In this document: positions 42,958 through 61,906 of the stretch, one piece after another | Position numbering within the stretch: position 1 is the first letter of the stretch | Layout: each line of letters starts with the position of its first letter | IMG/VR virus record: IMGVR_UViG_3300046820_002290 | Coordinates: 27,973-91,972 of that record | From: a virus | Length of the DNA: 64,000 bases | Direction: 5' to 3' (one strand) | Notes under the pieces: model-generated | What the model was told of the DNA's origin: nothing | Databases searched by the model: none | The model's input: only the letters and a program-made list of their open reading frames with translations | Position numbers and translations under genes: made by a program

Positions 42958-44685
42958 ATGTCTTTAATCACTCCCATCCCTAACGGTCCGTTTTATTCTT
43001 CTCCATCGTATTACGTAAACTCTCCCCAGGGCTTCCTCATCGTTGGGAGTGGCCTTTCGGTTGCTCCTGATGGCACCTTGCTATCGGCGTCGAGTGCGGG
43101 TGGTACCGTTACCGGTGTTACCGCTGGCGTCGGCCTCTCGGGTGGCACAATCACTCTCGCAGGCACCATCAACCTGGTTCCCGCCACGAACTCCACTCTC
43201 GGTGGTATCAAGGTCGGTGCCAACCTGATTGTTGCTCCTGACGGTACGCTGTCGGCGTTGCCCCCAGGCACAGGAACTGTAAATAATATTACTCTCGGCA
43301 CAGGACTCATCGGCGGTGGTGGTGGCCCTGTCGTCAACATTTCGTTGGCTCCCGCCTCCAAGACCCAGTTCGGTGGCGTTGTCATCGGTAACGGTATTGA
43401 CGTTGTTGGTGGTTTGATTTCTCTGAGTGCTGCTACCACAGCAGCGGTGGGTGGCGTCCGCCTGGCAACTTCTGCCGAGGTTATTGCTGGTACGGACGCT
43501 AGCAAGGTTGTTACGCCTGCAACTCTGGCGGCAAAGACAGCCACCTTGCTGCGGCCGGGAATCGTACAGCTGTCGGACAGCGTAGCTATCGCTGATAGCA
43601 CCAAGGCTGCCACGCAGACTGCGGCGTTCACTGCAAATGCCGCTGCCGTAGCCGCTCAGGCAACTGCCAACGCAGCGCTGCCAAAAGCTGGCGGGGTGAT
43701 GACTGGCGTCATTACGTTCGCCGCTGGGCAAACATTCCCCGGTGTTGCTTTCCCGGTTGCTACTGCCAACTCGCTCGGTGTAATCTCCGCTGGCCCTGGC
43801 CTATCGGTTAATGCCTCTGGCGTTCTCAGCACGGTCAATAACGGAACTGTAACTGCCGTGACCGCAGGGGAAGGTCTCGGGGCTCCTGCAACTGGTAACA
43901 CCATTTCTACATCGGGCACACTTCGTGTCGTTCCCCCTAGCACAGATGGGACCAAGATTGGGGGTGTGAAGGCTGGCACCAACGTTTCAATTGCCTTTGA
44001 CGGAACCCTTAGCGTCCCTGGCTCCAACTTCATCGCAAGTAATAACCCCTATCTCTTCAATGGCTATGTCTGGCCTGCTCCGTTAGCTTCGCCCTCATTG
44101 CCTTTCCCTGGAGTCAACGGTCAGGTTCTGACTGTTATTGACAATGTTGCGGGGACAATCGGATGGACTAGCACAGGCACTCTGCAGTCGGTTGTTGCTG
44201 GTCCGGGGCTGACCGTCACTTCTACGCCGACAACTGCTACAGTTTCTTTGACGACGGTACCATCTATTACTGCCGGGAATTTTGGTGGGACCACGCTCAT
44301 ACCCACGCTGTCAGTCAATCAGTATGGGCAACTTGTTTCTGTAGGTGAGGCAAATTGTTACCCGCCTTTCCTTCAGGCCACGGTTACGGCTCCGCCTTCG
44401 CTGGTTCTTGACTTCACCACCAATAATACTAATTGGGAATACACTCTGCAAGGAAACACTACAATTATCAACCCCGTAAACGCTCAGTCGGGCCAAACGG
44501 GATATTTACTCCTGCGTCAAAATCCGCTGTCCCCTTACACAGTTACTTGGGACTCAAGCTGGAAGTGGGCTAATTTTGCCCCTTACGCAGGAAACCCTAC
44601 TCTGGCTGCCGTGGACATGATTCAATTCGTGGTTGTTGATCCTAACTATGTCGTTGTTACTGGCCTGATCGAAAACATAGGGTAA
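42958..44685 (+). CDS. Tail fibre protein
   Basis: PIPNGPFY N-term; PATxxxLGGIKVG repeats; stop codon lies within GGGTAAAA. Confidence 0.8.
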   Translation: MSLITPIPNGPFYSSPSYYVNSPQGFLIVGSGLSVAPDGTLLSASSAGGTVTGVTAGVGLSGGTITLAGTINLVPATNSTLGGIKVGANLIVAPDGTLSALPPGTGTVNNITLGTGLIGGGGGPVVNISLAPASKTQFGGVVIGNGIDVVGGLISLSAATTAAVGGVRLATSAEVIAGTDASKVVTPATLAAKTATLLRPGIVQLSDSVAIADSTKAATQTAAFTANAAAVAAQATANAALPKAGGVMTGVITFAAGQTFPGVAFPVATANSLGVISAGPGLSVNASGVLSTVNNGTVTAVTAGEGLGAPATGNTISTSGTLRVVPPSTDGTKIGGVKAGTNVSIAFDGTLSVPGSNFIASNNPYLFNGYVWPAPLASPSLPFPGVNGQVLTVIDNVAGTIGWTSTGTLQSVVAGPGLTVTSTPTTATVSLTTVPSITAGNFGGTTLIPTLSVNQYGQLVSVGEANCYPPFLQATVTAPPSLVLDFTTNNTNWEYTLQGNTTIINPVNAQSGQTGYLLLRQNPLSPYTVTWDSSWKWANFAPYAGNPTLAAVDMIQFVVVDPNYVVVTGLIENIG

Positions 44686-44687
44686 AA
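44680..44687 (+). promoter_or_regulatory. GGGTAAAA putative late promoter
   Basis: Exact motif containing upstream stop; precedes pseudoknot A. Confidence 0.7.
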
Positions 44688-44693
44688 CCTGAC

Positions 44694-44746
44694 GGGTTGG
44701 TTGGTTTTCTTTAGCGAGTTTTCCAACCTTCCCAATAAACTCGCTA
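44694..44746 (+). ncRNA. Putative pseudoknot/switch 5' leader RNA of endonuclease gene (copy A)
   Basis: GGTTGG/CCAACC (+GGG/CCC) interleaved with TAGCGAGTTT/AAACTCGCTA; same architecture with compensatory changes at 61260-61307. Confidence 0.65.
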
Positions 44747-44754
44747 CCAGTATT

Positions 44755-45579
44755 ATGCAACCACGTATTTATACGTACAAGATCACGTTTGAAGAGATTC
44801 CTCACTGGTATTGGGGAGTGCATAAAGAGAAGAGATATAGCGATGGGTATATGGGCTCTCCCGTGACTCATAAATGGATGTGGGATTTCTATACGCCGAA
44901 GATTCAGATTTTGGAGTTCTTCCCTTACACAGAAGAGGGATGGAAGCAAGCAAACTTAGTTGAAGACAGATTGATTAAACCAGACTTAAATGACCCGCTC
45001 TGTCTAAATGAGGGTTGCGGAGCTCGAGTTTCCAGGGAAGCCGCACAGCGTGGTGGATACAAGATGAAAGGAGTTCCCAAGACCGGTGAGCACCGCAAGA
45101 AGATAGGTGATGGCAACAGGGGGAAGAAAAGAAGTCCAGAGTACTGTCAGGCTCTTTCCGAACGGAATAAGGGAAGAATTTTAACCGAGGAACAAAAGGC
45201 TCAACGAAGTGCATCCATGCGTCAATTCTACCAAGAAAATCCCGAGGCTAGGCAGAAAAAATCAGAAGAGGGTAGTCAAAGAAAGTGGTATCACAACTCT
45301 GCAACGGGGGAAACTCGCCATTGTGTAGAGGCCCCTTCTCCTGAATGGAAAGAGGGTAGACCAATTGAATACTTAGGGGCCCCATGGTGGACGGATGGCA
45401 AACAAAATAGAAGGTCTCTTGAAAAACCGGGGCCCGAGTGGGAGCGAGGTATAAGCAATCACCCGAGTAAAAGGCGATTCCGGTGCACACTAACCGGGTT
45501 TGTTTCTAGTTCCGCCGGACTCACAAAGTATCAAAATTCACGGGGGATTGACACCTCAAATCGCGTTCGCGTTGAGTGA
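44755..45579 (+). mobile_element. Free-standing GIY-YIG-like homing endonuclease with NUMOD3-like repeats
   Basis: IYTYKITF..WYWGVH..DGYMGS, CLN; EHRKKIG..NRGKKRS repeats; W..DG..N.R...PG..W..G modules. Confidence 0.8.
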
Positions 45580-49591: not shown

Positions 49592-50389
49592 ATGAAATTA
49601 CTCATCCTCTTTAATAATCAACCGCTGATCTATGATGTTGAAAGCAGCGAAACAACTCAAGAAATTTTATCATCATTAGGCGTCAGTGATCCCTCCTTGT
49701 ACCAGGAGTTTTCAGAATCTGATTTTGATCCCGCCTGTTACAGTTTTGTTTCAGCATTCTCCCTAGCCGAAGGTGTAGTTTCCTTCAATCTGCCGGACGC
49801 CAAGGTTCAAGCTAGCAACACCGTCAAAGTCCAGCATGCCGCAACCGAGCAAGCCGTAACCGCAGGTTACTCCGACACCGTTATCGCATCTCAATCCGGC
49901 CTCCCCGAAGGTGACCGTTTGCCAGAGATTCAGGCTGTTATCAGCGAAGTTAACTTCCTCGCCTACCAACTCTCGGACAACCTCGCCAAAATCGACGCTG
50001 CTACCGACGTAGAAACCGTTTACAACATTGTACAACAGCCTTCTGGCATCATTAATACCGGTCGTGGCGGTGACGGTCAGGCTGGTCCTTTGGATCTCAA
50101 CCTGTCGTACTTCCCCGAACTTAACGATATGCCTGGCTACACTCAGGCTGATCTCGAGTTGTTTATCCCTGGCACCAACACCGTAATCCCCTACGACCCC
50201 GAGCTTCCGGCACCTTACACCTTTGATTCTGCGGGTAACTGCTTTAAGAACAACGACTGGCGCCTAGTCATTCGTTACGCTGGTGGCGGAGCTGTGTTGC
50301 GGACCATCACGGTTGAGGAAGGTAATAACCAGGACGTGGCATGGACTTATAACCCTGCTATTCCCGGTGGTGGTTCACATTCGGCCTAA
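49592..50389 (+). CDS. Putative fibre assembly chaperone (cassette 1)
   Basis: GVSDPSLYQEFSESDFDPACY..AFSL..GVVSFNL, paralogous to 51947; follows an adhesin. Confidence 0.55.
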   Translation: MKLLILFNNQPLIYDVESSETTQEILSSLGVSDPSLYQEFSESDFDPACYSFVSAFSLAEGVVSFNLPDAKVQASNTVKVQHAATEQAVTAGYSDTVIASQSGLPEGDRLPEIQAVISEVNFLAYQLSDNLAKIDAATDVETVYNIVQQPSGIINTGRGGDGQAGPLDLNLSYFPELNDMPGYTQADLELFIPGTNTVIPYDPELPAPYTFDSAGNCFKNNDWRLVIRYAGGGAVLRTITVEEGNNQDVAWTYNPAIPGGGSHSA

Positions 50390-56269: not shown

Positions 56270-56483
56270 ATTCACGCCGCAAGGCCAAGAGTTTTACGAG
56301 TGGTGGTTGGCAGATGGGCCCGACGGCGTCGAAGAAGTTCACGGCTATGCCACCGACTTGATTACTTCCTTCTCGAAAATACTAGAATGGCATGAGCGGA
56401 TTGCCTCCGATTACGCTCAAGAAGTTATTTCAGAAATTGAAACCGCAAAACAATTTATTCAAAACGATGAAACCCACGACTGA
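56247..56483 (+). CDS. Hypothetical protein
   Basis: 78-aa ORF overlapping both neighbours. Confidence 0.55.
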   Translation: MKVTIVNKFTPQGQEFYEWWLADGPDGVEEVHGYATDLITSFSKILEWHERIASDYAQEVISEIETAKQFIQNDETHD

Positions 56484-57087
56484 AGCCTTAGCCGAATACA
56501 AAGACGCCGCCAGTAGGTGGGCTCAAGAAAGGCTTGCTGATGCCAACACCGTGATTTTGGATCTTGAGTCAACTGGACTCTTGCGAGAGGATCCCGAAAC
56601 CGAGATCGCCCAGATTTGCATTACAAACACTAAGGGGAGACAACTTTTTTCAATGCTGTTGAAACCGTGCGCACCCATGTCAGACAAAGTGATTGGGATC
56701 CACCACATCTCAAATGAGGAAATAGTAAATCAACCGATTTTCCCACAAATTGCAAAAATAATTTCTTTTGTCCTTCGGGGCAAGCATGTAGTAGCGTTTA
56801 ATCTGGAATTCGACTGGAAACTTTTAGTGCATATGTTCCAAAAGTACGATCTCCCAAAACCTGAGGTAGTGGGATTGTCTTGTGCGATGGACCGTTATTC
56901 AGAATGGTGTGGGGAATGGAATGCAAAACGTGATGGGTTTAGGTGGCAAAAACTCCCCAACTTTATTGGAGACGTTAGTCACGATGCCTACAACGATTGT
57001 AGAAACACCGTCAAAGTTATGGAAAAAATGACAGGGATGTTTGATGAGGGTAAATTGACGGCAGAGGATATAGATCTCGATTTTTAG
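56467..57087 (+). CDS. DEDDh 3'-5' exonuclease (DnaQ-like)
   Basis: ILDLESTGL, AFNLEFD, HDAYNDC motifs. Confidence 0.9.
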   Translation: MKPTTEALAEYKDAASRWAQERLADANTVILDLESTGLLREDPETEIAQICITNTKGRQLFSMLLKPCAPMSDKVIGIHHISNEEIVNQPIFPQIAKIISFVLRGKHVVAFNLEFDWKLLVHMFQKYDLPKPEVVGLSCAMDRYSEWCGEWNAKRDGFRWQKLPNFIGDVSHDAYNDCRNTVKVMEKMTGMFDEGKLTAEDIDLDF

Positions 57088-57095
57088 GTAATCCA

Positions 57096-57794
57096 ATGTT
57101 TCACACAGTCTATAATTCGTATGAGTCTAAACCGGAAGGGAGAGATTATATTGGCAAACACAGTACGGAAAACCCTTATGACCAGTATATGGGGTCGTTC
57201 TTGGATGAGAGTTTTGACCCGGACTTCAAAATTATCATGGCGTACGCAAAAACACCAGAAGGGGCTACTTGGTTTGAAATAAATTTTCACAATGTGTTTA
57301 ATGTTGGAGCAAATCCAGAATTTGCGAACCTCGCAAAAGCAGCGAAAATTAAGTTTGACAGGACGGGAGTAAAAAACTCTGCTGAAACCAAGTTAAAGAT
57401 TAAAAAATCTTGGACTGAGGAAAGAAAGCAGAGTATTAGAGAAAAAAGATCAGGCGAAAATCACCCCCTTTGGGGAACTACTCTTTCGGCAAAAACTCGA
57501 AGAAAAATGAGAGAAGCCAAGTTAGGTAAATCAAATCCAAGTGCTACTGAGAAACTTAAGGGAAGAAAACGTCCAGAGCATTCTAAGAAGATGTCTGGCG
57601 AGGGTAATCCCAAAAGCAAGAAAATAGAAGTCACCTACCCGGAAGGCAACATAGAGATTTTCCCATATGTAAAACTTGCAGCAAAAGCCCTAGGGTATGA
57701 CGCCAACACTTTGGGAAAATGGGCCTCTAAAAACTACGTACCTCGCAAGGGTAGGTTAGCTGGTTACGCCTTTCGTTACGTACAGGACTTCTGA
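57096..57794 (+). mobile_element. Free-standing GIY-YIG homing endonuclease with NUMOD3-like repeats
   Basis: MFHTVY...DYIGKHSTENPYDQYMGS (paralog of 5609); SAETKLKI, SGENHPLWG, SAKTRRKM repeats; C-terminal HTH-like AAKALG. Confidence 0.85.
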
Positions 57795-60288: not shown

Positions 60289-61253
60289 TGGAACGTCCTA
60301 AGTTTGAAAACATAATCGAGATAAATACCAATCCCAGCGCTCTCTGGGTTATTGACTACAATGTCATGGTTCACGATATATTGAACTGGTATGTCTCTAA
60401 AATCGAAGGCTCTTTCTCTAAGGAAGTTGAAGCCAAACTGGTTAAAGGTGTCTGGGCTCTTTACGTAAACCGAGGCCCTCAGTTTCTCCCTAGAAACTCC
60501 TATCGCACAATCTTAGTTGCTGACTACCGTGATCCGGAAACTTCTAATTACTGGCGCGACGAATTTATGCGCGAGTCTGAACAAGTTCAACAAGCTTGGG
60601 CTGACTATGCGGAACAGCAAGGAGTTGATAAGGACTCCTTACGGACCAACTATAAGGGAACACGTGGCGCTAAGACAGAGTCTTTCTGGTTTGTTTACAA
60701 CATCGGTAAAGACTATTGTCAAAAATTCTTCCCGTGGTACTGGCAGCTTGGGTACGAGGCTGACGACCTTTCGGGATCAATTGCTCGACTCAGTCGAACT
60801 TCTGAAAAAGATTCGGTGATCCACCGCAGACAAATCCTTCTGCACACTTGTGACAGAGATTGGGCACAACTGATTGACGATGAGAATAAAATCTACTTCT
60901 CGAACTCACGCTGGTGCCGCCCAAACGAGCGGATCCAAGAGCAACTTCAAAAGGAAGAAGGAGTCCTTGAGTGGGTCGAATACAAGATGAAAGTGAAACT
61001 CAAGCACCCCTCGGAGATGGCTGTGCACAAGTCGATCCAAGGTGACATGGGCGACAATGCCGTCAAGGGATCGCCCGTGGAGTTGTACGACCTAATTTAC
61101 CCGCACCCGAAGTGGAACATTGATGAGTTGCTCTGGACCGAGGAGTTTATTGAGTCGATGAATAATCCTGAGCCCACAACAAGGCATGACCATTACGAGC
61201 AGACTATCCGCCAATTTGCAAAAATCTCTCTAGAAGTACCAATTAGGGTATAA
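60285..61253 (+). CDS. 5'-3' exonuclease / flap endonuclease (T4 RNase H-like)
   Basis: VIDYN, YWR, YKGTR, YEADD, DRDWAQL, GDMGDN. Confidence 0.85.
   Translation: MMERPKFENIIEINTNPSALWVIDYNVMVHDILNWYVSKIEGSFSKEVEAKLVKGVWALYVNRGPQFLPRNSYRTILVADYRDPETSNYWRDEFMRESEQVQQAWADYAEQQGVDKDSLRTNYKGTRGAKTESFWFVYNIGKDYCQKFFPWYWQLGYEADDLSGSIARLSRTSEKDSVIHRRQILLHTCDRDWAQLIDDENKIYFSNSRWCRPNERIQEQLQKEEGVLEWVEYKMKVKLKHPSEMAVHKSIQGDMGDNAVKGSPVELYDLIYPHPKWNIDELLWTEEFIESMNNPEPTTRHDHYEQTIRQFAKISLEVPIRV
61246..61253 (+). promoter_or_regulatory. GGGTATAA variant late promoter
   Basis: One mismatch, contains upstream stop; precedes pseudoknot B. Confidence 0.55.
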
Positions 61254-61259
61254 CTTTAA

Positions 61260-61307
61260 GGGGTTGGTGATTTCCTCGCGAGGGTTCTCACCTCCCCAAA
61301 CCCTCGC
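61260..61307 (+). ncRNA. Putative pseudoknot/switch 5' leader RNA of endonuclease gene (copy B)
   Basis: GGTGA/TCACC (+GGGG/CCCC) interleaved with GCGAGGGTT/AACCCTCGC. Confidence 0.65.
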
Positions 61308-61317
61308 AAAGTTTAGA

Positions 61318-61869
61318 ATGAATAAAGAAGTCTCCATCGTGAAGGTGGATTTTAGACCGTACAGGAAAATAGCTCAGGAGAACTGGGGACTTACGGATGA
61401 ACAGATGCAGGGAATGCACGTTCATCACAGAATACCCGTTTCTCGCGGGGGTACAAATGATCCCAGTAATTTGTACGTCTGTAGCGCTTGGTTTCATATG
61501 GGCGTCTGGCATGCTGAAGACGGATTTAACAGCCTAATCCCTCATGCTGTGCAGGGAGGTAGGGTAGGAGGTAAGAAATCCCGTGTTGGCCCCATCTCTT
61601 ACGAAAGAAAGTTTGGAATATTTGGGCTTGACCCGGACAAAAAGAAGGAAGCAGAAGTAAAAGGCGGTAGATCCACTTTTGAACAAAAGACGGGTTGTCA
61701 TGCACCTGAATTCAAGGGAGTAGGAGCCAGAAAAACCAATTCAACCTACTGGGAAGATCCGGATCACCCTGAGCTTGGTATATTGCAGGCCGGTCCGTTA
61801 GCTCGAAGACAAAAGGCGCGGGGCTTACCGCACGGCAAGGAGAACCGCAGAAGAGTAAAGAGCGATTAG
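61318..61869 (+). mobile_element. Free-standing HNH homing endonuclease
   Basis: HVHHRIPVSRGGTNDPSNLYVC..FH...WH; C-term DPDHPELG module shared with 5609. Confidence 0.85.
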
Positions 61870-61876
61870 AAACACA

Positions 61877-61884
61877 GGGTAAAA
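61877..61884 (+). promoter_or_regulatory. GGGTAAAA putative late promoter
   Basis: Exact motif, 30 nt before start. Confidence 0.7.
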
Positions 61885-61906
61885 CCAATCAGACTAAGGT
61901 TCAAAT

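Follow-up and report, generated by a model that had tools for sequence, protein, structure and literature searches.

Homing endonucleases need expression high enough to spread and too low to hurt their carrier, and the sole worked-out solutions to this demand are those of T4-type phages of proteobacteria, which combine masking of the Shine-Dalgarno sequence with nested promoters. In the T-even phages, stable hairpins on the early and middle transcripts of I-TevI, I-TevII, I-TevIII, segB and Aeh1 mobE conceal the ribosome site, which becomes accessible late in infection through a late promoter nested inside the hairpin, and I-TevI also represses its own late promoter (PMC2988022). A single hairpin is likewise described for seg43(25) of Aeromonas phage 25, a T4-like phage of a proteobacterium (PMC2988022). 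Here we describe a structured leader of about 55 nucleotides (nt) that lies between a promoter-like box and the start codon, without a Shine-Dalgarno sequence, of two homing endonuclease genes in a 64,000-nt stretch of viral DNA (hereafter the window), which forms the final 64 kb of the 91,972-bp single-contig virus record IMGVR_UViG_3300046820_002290. The sequence anatomy of this element, its conservation, its covariation, its exclusive association with endonuclease genes and its mobility between sites and between phage families are established here. Judged from these sequences, it appears to belong to the free-standing homing endonuclease cassettes of S-CBWM1-like (Aokuangvirus-like) freshwater cyanophages, where, in a reading that we regard as on balance probable, it would serve as a portable cis-acting leader RNA that adopts either a pseudoknot or two alternating states and limits or gates translation of the nuclease.

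The two copies in the window and the genes that follow them are laid out below, in window coordinates, with S1 and S2 for the two stems, a and b for their 5' and 3' arms, and L1 to L3 for the loops.

44680-44688, + strand: box of copy A, GGGTAAAAC, promoter-like (putative), with the stop codon of the upstream fibre gene inside it
44694-44704, + strand: S1 5' arm of copy A, outer GGG, a UU internal loop and inner GGUUGG
44705-44711, + strand: loop 1 of copy A, 7 pyrimidines
44712-44721, + strand: S2 5' arm of copy A, 10 nt
44722, + strand: L2 of copy A, 1 nt
44723-44733, + strand: S1 3' arm of copy A, CCAACC, UU and CCC
44734-44736, + strand: L3 of copy A, 3 nt
44737-44746, + strand: S2 3' arm of copy A, ending 8 nt 5' of the ATG, with no Shine-Dalgarno sequence after it
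44755, + strand: ATG behind copy A
44755-45579, + strand: homing endonuclease A, type I, 274 amino acids (aa), PHROG 314, with a GIY-YIG-like N-terminus
61246-61254, + strand: box of copy B, GGGTATAAC, with the stop codon of the upstream 5'-3' exonuclease gene inside it
61260-61270, + strand: S1 5' arm of copy B, GGGG, UU and GGUGA
61271-61277, + strand: loop 1 of copy B, UUUCCUC
61278-61286, + strand: S2 5' arm of copy B, 9 nt
61287, + strand: L2 of copy B, 1 nt
61288-61297, + strand: S1 3' arm of copy B, UCACC, U and CCCC
61298, + strand: L3 of copy B, 1 nt
61299-61307, + strand: S2 3' arm of copy B, ending 10 nt 5' of the ATG
61318, + strand: ATG behind copy B
61318-61869, + strand: homing endonuclease B, type III, 183 aa, HNH (PF01844, E 5.7e-5)
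61877-61885, + strand: second box at locus B, directly 3' of the HNH gene and serving the downstream gene

The order is the same in both copies: box, 5-nt spacer, S1a, loop 1, S2a, a single nucleotide, S1b, L3, S2b, 8-10 A/U-rich nt and the ATG. An earlier reading of this DNA from its letters alone (the sequence-only reading) had set out these stems, loops and their order, and the sequences are exactly as it wrote them. It had also reported equal spacing, which is true of both copies: S1 starts 14 nt after the first G of the box, as it does in 12 of the 13 copies now known, and the ATG follows CTCGC by 10 nt, a distance of 9-11 nt in the other copies. Between box and ATG the two leaders share 78% column identity, and similarity is lost 5' of the box. 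The spacer that places S1 5 nt past the box (12 of 13 copies) occurs in nine sequence variants, and this fixed length with varying sequence suggests that where S1 lies with respect to the transcript start is important. In all 13 copies neither helix includes the AUG or the 8-11 nt that precede it, and the leaders contain no Shine-Dalgarno sequence before the start codon. We also observed that the S1 arms of B-type copies (window 61288-61297; loci L184 and L193) and of a diverged copy (L211:646-682) resemble a Shine-Dalgarno/anti-Shine-Dalgarno pair; the 3' arm of the B-type copies reads UCACCUCC, which we take to be the core of the 16S rRNA 3' end, and this likeness is not kept in the A-type copies.

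Thirteen copies were found in total, two in this genome, nine in metagenomes and two in IMG/VR (L066 and L211), and in every one of them an open reading frame (ORF) starts 8-11 nt past the element and encodes an endonuclease. The proposal that the leader travels with endonuclease genes whatever the nuclease family, and the test of association that went with it, are therefore borne out by 11 further copies, all of them before endonucleases, and by four N-terminal types of enzyme.

Type I: A-like (PHROG 314), 6 copies
Type II: classic GIY-YIG (PF01541), loci L066, L184 and L193
Type III: HNH (PF01844), copy B and loci L187 and L211
Type IV: NUMOD3-bearing, GIY-YIG-like, locus L192

Leader and enzyme do not assort strictly: the A-like leader precedes types I and II, and the B-type leader precedes types II, III and IV. 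The pattern that succeeded in recovering copies was anchored on the box, the outer GGG, CCCAA and CTCGC and left the variable parts of both stems free, and it returned 13 metagenome loci, nine real and four due to chance. The diverged copy L211 was reached by protein-guided search alone, through relatives of the HNH enzyme. A covariance model (R1) built from three copies, with L211 unseen, nevertheless recognised L211 with 37.4 bits (E 1e-6). The source genome has copies A and B only. Elsewhere the searches were mostly negative. On 30 contigs of close relatives (capsid 93-99% identical), and on the phages S-CBWM1, B3 and S-SRM01, the model gave no convincing match, the one in S-CBWM1 lying inside a sugar-nucleotidyltransferase gene. 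The pattern GGGTTGGT...GCGAG...CTCGC gave 62 loci in IMG/VR and no real copy; a box-free pattern in the same database gave L066 as the sole true copy, its other 10 loci sharing an unrelated conserved motif. BLAST of the element against isolated phages returned 24-nt chance matches only, and a pattern scan of prokaryote genomes returned a single match (L202), which was left unclassified. As a separate observation, an unrelated conserved stretch of about 60 nt recurs in nine viral contigs of IMG/VR (L174, L176-L183) and consists of a T-rich run, ATGCGAGG, an A-rich run and CCCAACAAACCCAACACACT.

Covariation was assessed on a MAFFT alignment of 12 copies, with L211 outside it, over 17 pairs and 182 pair cells; the alignment keeps the columns of the two helices in register. 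Standard pairs occupy all 182 cells (100%), and five pairs, three in S1 and two in S2, show changes on both sides, which upholds across the family the compensatory changes in both stems that had been noticed between copies A and B. Pairing falls to 40-58% when partners are slid by 1-3 columns, and none of 500 shuffles matched the observed pairing or covariation score. The inner part of S1 occurs in four forms (GGUUGG/CCAACC, GGGUAG/CUACCC, GGUGA/UCACC and GGUGG/CCACC), S2 shifts between copies from UUU/AAA to GGUU/AACC, and the outer S2 pair is A-U, G-C or U-A. In L211, S1 is wholly different (GGAGGAGGG/CCUUCCUCC, 9 bp including one G-U), one A-U pair of S2 has become G-U, and the outer pair of S2 is of the third Watson-Crick type. 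Taken singly, the copies fold unremarkably: the whole leaders of A and B have z-scores of -1.5 and -1.05, and their S2 cores reach -2.45 and -3.64. The case for a structure beyond chance therefore comes from the homologues.

The interleaved strand order S1a-S2a-S1b-S2b, with both helices supported by covariation, is that of an H-type pseudoknot. S1 is the 5'-proximal hairpin, with S2a in its loop, and S2 arises when this loop pairs with the 9-10 nt that end 8-11 nt before the AUG, which puts S2b at about -9 to -20 relative to the start codon. With S1 formed (-15 to -19 kcal/mol), the outer GGG/CCC, an internal loop and the inner 5-6 bp are capped by an apical helix of 3-4 bp in which the 3' part of loop 1 pairs with GAG(G) of S2a (in copy A the GAG, giving a small apical hairpin), and about 21-24 nt 5' of the AUG are left single-stranded. 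S2 alone amounts to -11 to -15 kcal/mol, so that the margin of S1 over S2 is 3.7-5.9 kcal/mol in the A-type copies and L211 and 0.8-3.0 kcal/mol in the B-type copies. A pseudoknot of the inner S1 with S2 is estimated, crudely, at -19.5 to -22.6 kcal/mol, from stacking energies and Dirks-Pierce-type penalties. In that arrangement L1 is 7, L2 is 1 and L3 is 6-8 nt, values constant in the A-type copies, the B-type copies and L211, whereas the full S1 (9-11 bp) together with S2 leaves an L3 of only 1-3 nt. A loop of 1-3 nt is too short to span 9-11 bp, and 6-8 nt are plausible for the inner S1. We infer from this geometry that the full S1 and S2 would be sterically incompatible and the inner S1 and S2 compatible, which leaves a short-S1 pseudoknot or a fold with two alternating states, the same pair of options at which the sequence-only reading had arrived from the shortness of loop 3.

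The genome that carries these leaders has its nearest isolate in Synechococcus phage S-CBWM1 (genus Aokuangvirus; capsid protein 66% identical), with S-TIM5-like cyanomyoviruses as more distant relatives. The record is 41% complete by CheckV and bears nearly all its genes on the + strand. The lineage is a common one, given that this capsid is encoded at at least 308 IMG/VR loci, 80 kept loci being 93-99% identical. Across the whole genome the box GGGTA[AT]AA occurs 31 times on the + strand and not at all on the - strand, and in S-CBWM1 (NC_048106.1) the strand counts are 34 and 1; within the window the boxes span 2253-61884. A further short element (TAAC, TTAC or TATC) often stands about 4 nt past the box. 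The box resembles a late promoter peculiar to this lineage. It occurs at control or chance frequency only in B3 and S-SRM01, two T4-like cyanophages in which it is not a regulon motif, and our literature search found a description of neither this box nor this leader. Box-led leaders in this genome usually run 30-42 nt from box to ATG, and most of these others are unstructured, with a minimum free energy (MFE) of about 0; in the two endonuclease leaders the distances are 72 and 75 nt and the MFE values -17.5 and -18.7 kcal/mol. The element is present in just 2 of the 31 box-led leaders of the 92-kb genome, and both precede endonuclease genes. One further structured leader was seen before a tail sheath-like gene (1313 aa; genome 9990-10089, L085), with 99 nt from box to ATG and an MFE of -19.2 kcal/mol; it is unrelated to the endonuclease leader.

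Set beside the T-even masks, the element is alike in being a cis RNA structure that precedes the coding part of a homing endonuclease gene and adjoins a late-type promoter specific to the phage (a putative one here), and both devices are presumed to keep a selfish nuclease scarce while neighbouring genes are left undisturbed. The differences lie in the execution. The present leaders lack a Shine-Dalgarno sequence, and their start codon stands outside the helices; two interleaved helices replace the one hairpin, and one leader family serves several nuclease families. Nor is a promoter nested within the structure, the box lying 5 nt 5' of the first strand. No box occurs in the interval from S2a to S2b (12-15 nt), and a sigma-70-like match at 44729-44756 is of chance frequency and would start transcription past the ATG. 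With no promoter between the arms, every transcript would carry all four strands.

A parallel in architecture is found before homologues of nuclease A in T4-like cyanophages (L067-L078; B3, L082:1380-1490; S-SRM01, L083:1385-1490). These carry a dual-promoter cassette of about 100 nt, in which a late-promoter-like box comes first and is followed by a hairpin able to pair with the bases just 5' of the ribosome site, by an intrinsic terminator and by a second TATAAATA. Both designs have a box and, about 5 nt later, a hairpin that can pair through its 5' arm or its loop with the bases immediately ahead of the start codon; the order S1a-S2a-S1b-S2b and the position in front of homologues of nuclease A are likewise common to the two. 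In the cassette, however, the terminator and the second TATAAATA promoter separate the hairpin from its target, where the gap in our element is 1-3 nt, and the element is about half the size, uses another box and has no sequence similarity to it. By eye, the complementary arms of the dual-promoter cassette covary between loci. With seg43(25) the element shares a very stable structure placed just 5' of the ribosome site, the ribosome site itself being excluded, and differs from it in that seg43(25) has a single hairpin and a Shine-Dalgarno sequence.

Pseudoknots that act as translational operators in 5' leaders, bound by the product of their own gene, are known from the T4 gene 32 mRNA and from Escherichia coli rpsO and the alpha operon. 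The putative H-type pseudoknot described here resembles them in its place in the 5' leader and in the unstructured A/U-rich run that follows it to the start codon; the difference is that several products stand behind the same leader, and autogenous protein binding is unlikely because these products differ while the leader stays the same. The autoregulatory operator that the sequence-only reading had offered as one function is accordingly disfavoured, since one leader serves proteins with differing DNA-binding parts, and its suggestion of a separate small RNA partner is disfavoured because no terminator lies between the arms. Among the functions it proposed, a translational brake or switch is our best guess. 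The element is a variant that shares principle and strand order with the T4-type mask and is not a member of it.

Several known classes of element were considered for the two leaders and rejected. A riboswitch was discarded on the absence of an Rfam match: Rfam 15 gave no match at gathering score over the whole window, and on five copy-bearing loci at E <= 1 it gave tRNAs and chance matches elsewhere and nothing at the element, in keeping with the earlier statement that the leader belongs to no known RNA family. An intrinsic terminator does not fit, since AAU or A comes after S1 and an A-rich tail after S2, with no U-tract and neither copy called. A recoding signal (-1 frameshift or read-through) was set aside on the lack of an X XXY YYZ heptamer, on the upstream stop, whose position and frame with respect to the box vary among A, B and the metagenome copies, and on the generic occurrence of the box at about 30 genes. 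A group I intron remnant was dismissed for want of an Rfam intron match and because comparison with empty sites shows a purely intergenic insertion.

The 13 copies are spread over at least four insertion sites. All six type I copies lie 3' of one fibre gene and are orthologous, and L184 stands before a homologue of window ORF 49592-50389, at a junction that is unoccupied in this genome. At the copy B site (61246-61885) three states were seen: here the order is box, leader, HNH gene, box; in two relatives (L171 of G003, L172 of G002) the site is empty, with a single box between the exonuclease and the downstream gene; and in L192 a type IV nuclease sits at the exact site behind the same leader. 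These states suggest either replacement of the ORF within a cassette or repeated capture at box-led junctions. In L066 (IMGVR_UViG_3300036985_003929, 695-1620) the cassette lies between homologues of Synechococcus phage B3 gp143 and gp144, the latter present in B3 and in neither S-CBWM1 nor the relatives of this genome. Because of these neighbours, and because the box is at chance frequency in that family, we conclude that the cassette, box included, has entered a different (T4-like, B3-like) phage family. About 75 nt of the gp144 homologue (its first 25 or so codons) are duplicated 5' of the L066 cassette with many synonymous differences, and the duplicate terminates at a stop codon inside the box; it looks like an insertion footprint or a cleavage-resistant recoded target. 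Among the type I orthologous loci the leader is 94.8% identical against about 50% for the upstream DNA, and within the ORF identity drops from 87.6% in the first 150 nt to 63% and further on to 35%, a profile of conservation that fits selection on the leader and also a recent spread of the 5' part of the cassette.

On our preferred reading, in which the leader RNA restrains its nuclease, the box would be the promoter and would start the transcript at S1 or 1-2 nt before it. The RNA would then form an H-type pseudoknot of inner S1 and S2; alternatively, the long S1 hairpin, with the start region open, would alternate with S2, in which the start region is paired. Such a fold would occupy the landing zone of the ribosome, and perhaps the 5' end, so that translation of the nuclease is held down or gated, with transcription continuing into the downstream phage gene. 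We infer the promoter, the transcript start, the joint formation of the helices and the repression from the sequences, and the endonuclease RNA structures of T-even phages known to limit translation are a precedent for a brake. A number of points weigh against this reading. Repression is not obvious, since no state pairs the AUG or the 8-11 nt that precede it, and the leaders offer no Shine-Dalgarno sequence that a helix could mask. S1 is 1-6 kcal/mol more stable than S2 alone by nearest-neighbour energies, and the S1 hairpin would be expected to form first, leaving the start region open. Independent lineages are few (five S1 forms, four S2 forms), and most of the double changes stem from the single split between A-type and B-type leaders. 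Twelve of the 13 copies use Watson-Crick pairs only, so the argument for an RNA over a DNA element comes mainly from L211 and from strand asymmetry. Two of the four endonuclease genes of this genome, and most HNH homologues elsewhere, lack the element. Finally, recent spread, and not selection, could account for the high conservation that the leader shares with the initial 150 nt of the ORF (87.6%).

A more ambitious version of the restraining leader, which we advance tentatively and think rather doubtful, is a two-state or pseudoknot device that reads an input and sets nuclease translation accordingly, a self-contained 'expression governor' of selfish genes that works independently of Shine-Dalgarno sequences and would accompany these genes from one nuclease family, insertion site or even phage family to another. 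Its inputs could be the origin of the transcript (box-initiated or read-through), an upstream ribosome as it terminates, or a phage or host factor. A still more radical variant, by analogy with viral exonuclease-resistant RNAs, would be a pseudoknot that blocks exonucleases.

The fixed placement of S1, 5 nt past the box in 12 of 13 copies with nine spacer variants between, would put a hairpin at the predicted 5' end of the transcript, where a fold may protect the mRNA against decay by RNase E or RNase J, or may halt a 5'-to-3' exonuclease after cleavage of a late transcript. That the start region is unpaired in all states and that the crude pseudoknot energy is the lowest among the states would also suit a stabiliser or processing barrier of this kind. 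It is nonetheless an unlikely account, as S1 alone would do for this purpose and the covarying S2 is left unexplained, and a selfish nuclease is expected to be restrained and not boosted, the known phage precedents being repressive.

The adjacency of the element to a promoter-like box, together with the Watson-Crick-only complementarity of 12 copies, raises the possibility that it works at the level of DNA, as a promoter-overlapping operator for autorepression in the manner of I-TevI, for which there is precedent (PMC2988022), or as a recombination or landing sequence for cassettes that hop between box-led junctions. The cassette of locus B, placed between two boxes, and the exchange of different nuclease ORFs behind the same leader would agree with a role in the DNA. 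What makes a DNA-level role improbable is that the observed changes keep intramolecular complementarity and not sequence, and that the G-U pairs of L211 would be mismatches in DNA. All copies, moreover, lie in gene orientation with an all-pyrimidine loop 1, a protein operator has no need of two interleaved inverted repeats, and the leader is common to nucleases whose DNA-binding parts are different or undetectably related (A and B; L066 and L184).

We give a comparably small chance to the view that the leader is a hitch-hiking relic, kept through a recent spread of the cassette with stems that have no present function. The joint conservation of leader (94.8%) and first 150 nt of the ORF (87.6%) amid far more diverged flanks is what such a history would leave, and the family is small and limited to one environmental phage group; yet pairing survives every observed change in both helices, even the complete substitution of S1 that L211 shows, A-type, B-type and L211 leaders have one constant geometry, and the leader stays in place when another ORF is exchanged into the position behind it.

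Least probable of all is a transcription attenuator or terminator that insulates the nuclease from box-driven or read-through transcription, for although the stable G+C-rich hairpins lie directly past the promoter-like box, and true terminators occur in the leaders of related nuclease genes of T4-like cyanophages and of the third nuclease gene of this genome, a U-tract follows neither helix, a terminator scan calls nothing at either copy, and the phage gene downstream of locus A has no box of its own and must therefore be transcribed through the element.

The enzymes behind the leaders belong to a network of mosaics that share linker and C-terminal pieces. The ORF behind copy A matches the PHROG 314 'homing endonuclease' profile (E 1.7e-18) in the part of the profile that a clear GIY-YIG paralogue of the genome also matches, and it has no Pfam match even at E = 1; a sequence search of the PDB with it gave nothing useful. 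The earlier assignment of nuclease A to the GIY-YIG family thus stands as regards a homing endonuclease, through PHROG 314, and lacks a Pfam GIY-YIG match. Its relatives are free-standing genes in T4-like cyanophages, and 507 homologues were found for the HNH nuclease B. The statement that A and B are unrelated also holds in part: BLAST detects no similarity between the two, and mosaic relatives connect them. The GIY-YIG enzyme of L184 has a linker and C-terminal region in common with HNH enzyme B (30% over about 170 aa) and reaches 59% over 46 aa with type I enzymes (the L189 and L194 proteins were compared), while the L066 and L184 proteins have the N-terminal 88 aa alone in common.

The two further endonuclease genes of the genome that are without the element lie at genome 22051-22569 and window 57096-57794. 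The second encodes a homing endonuclease (PHROG 314, NUMOD3), has an unstructured leader and starts 8 nt after the stop of gene 56392-57087. The first has a sigma-70-like promoter adjoining a terminator hairpin, and this other leader design (L086:1990-2060, which is genome 21990-22060) recurs before HNH genes at L208 and L210. In all three the -10 TATAAT adjoins the terminator hairpin or sits in its loop, and a T-run comes directly before the start codon. Read-through transcripts of this design would terminate or be masked, and its own transcripts would lack the 5' arm.

If our reading is true, these leaders would be a compact, portable alternative to the T4-type solution, used by cyanophages whose late messages have no Shine-Dalgarno sequence, common to GIY-YIG-type and HNH enzymes and moved across phage families. 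The element, a candidate new RNA family, offers a small, testable RNA, in two natural types and a diverged third, for the control of Shine-Dalgarno-independent initiation by 5' structure in cyanobacteria, and it provides a marker for mobile nuclease cassettes in metagenomes.

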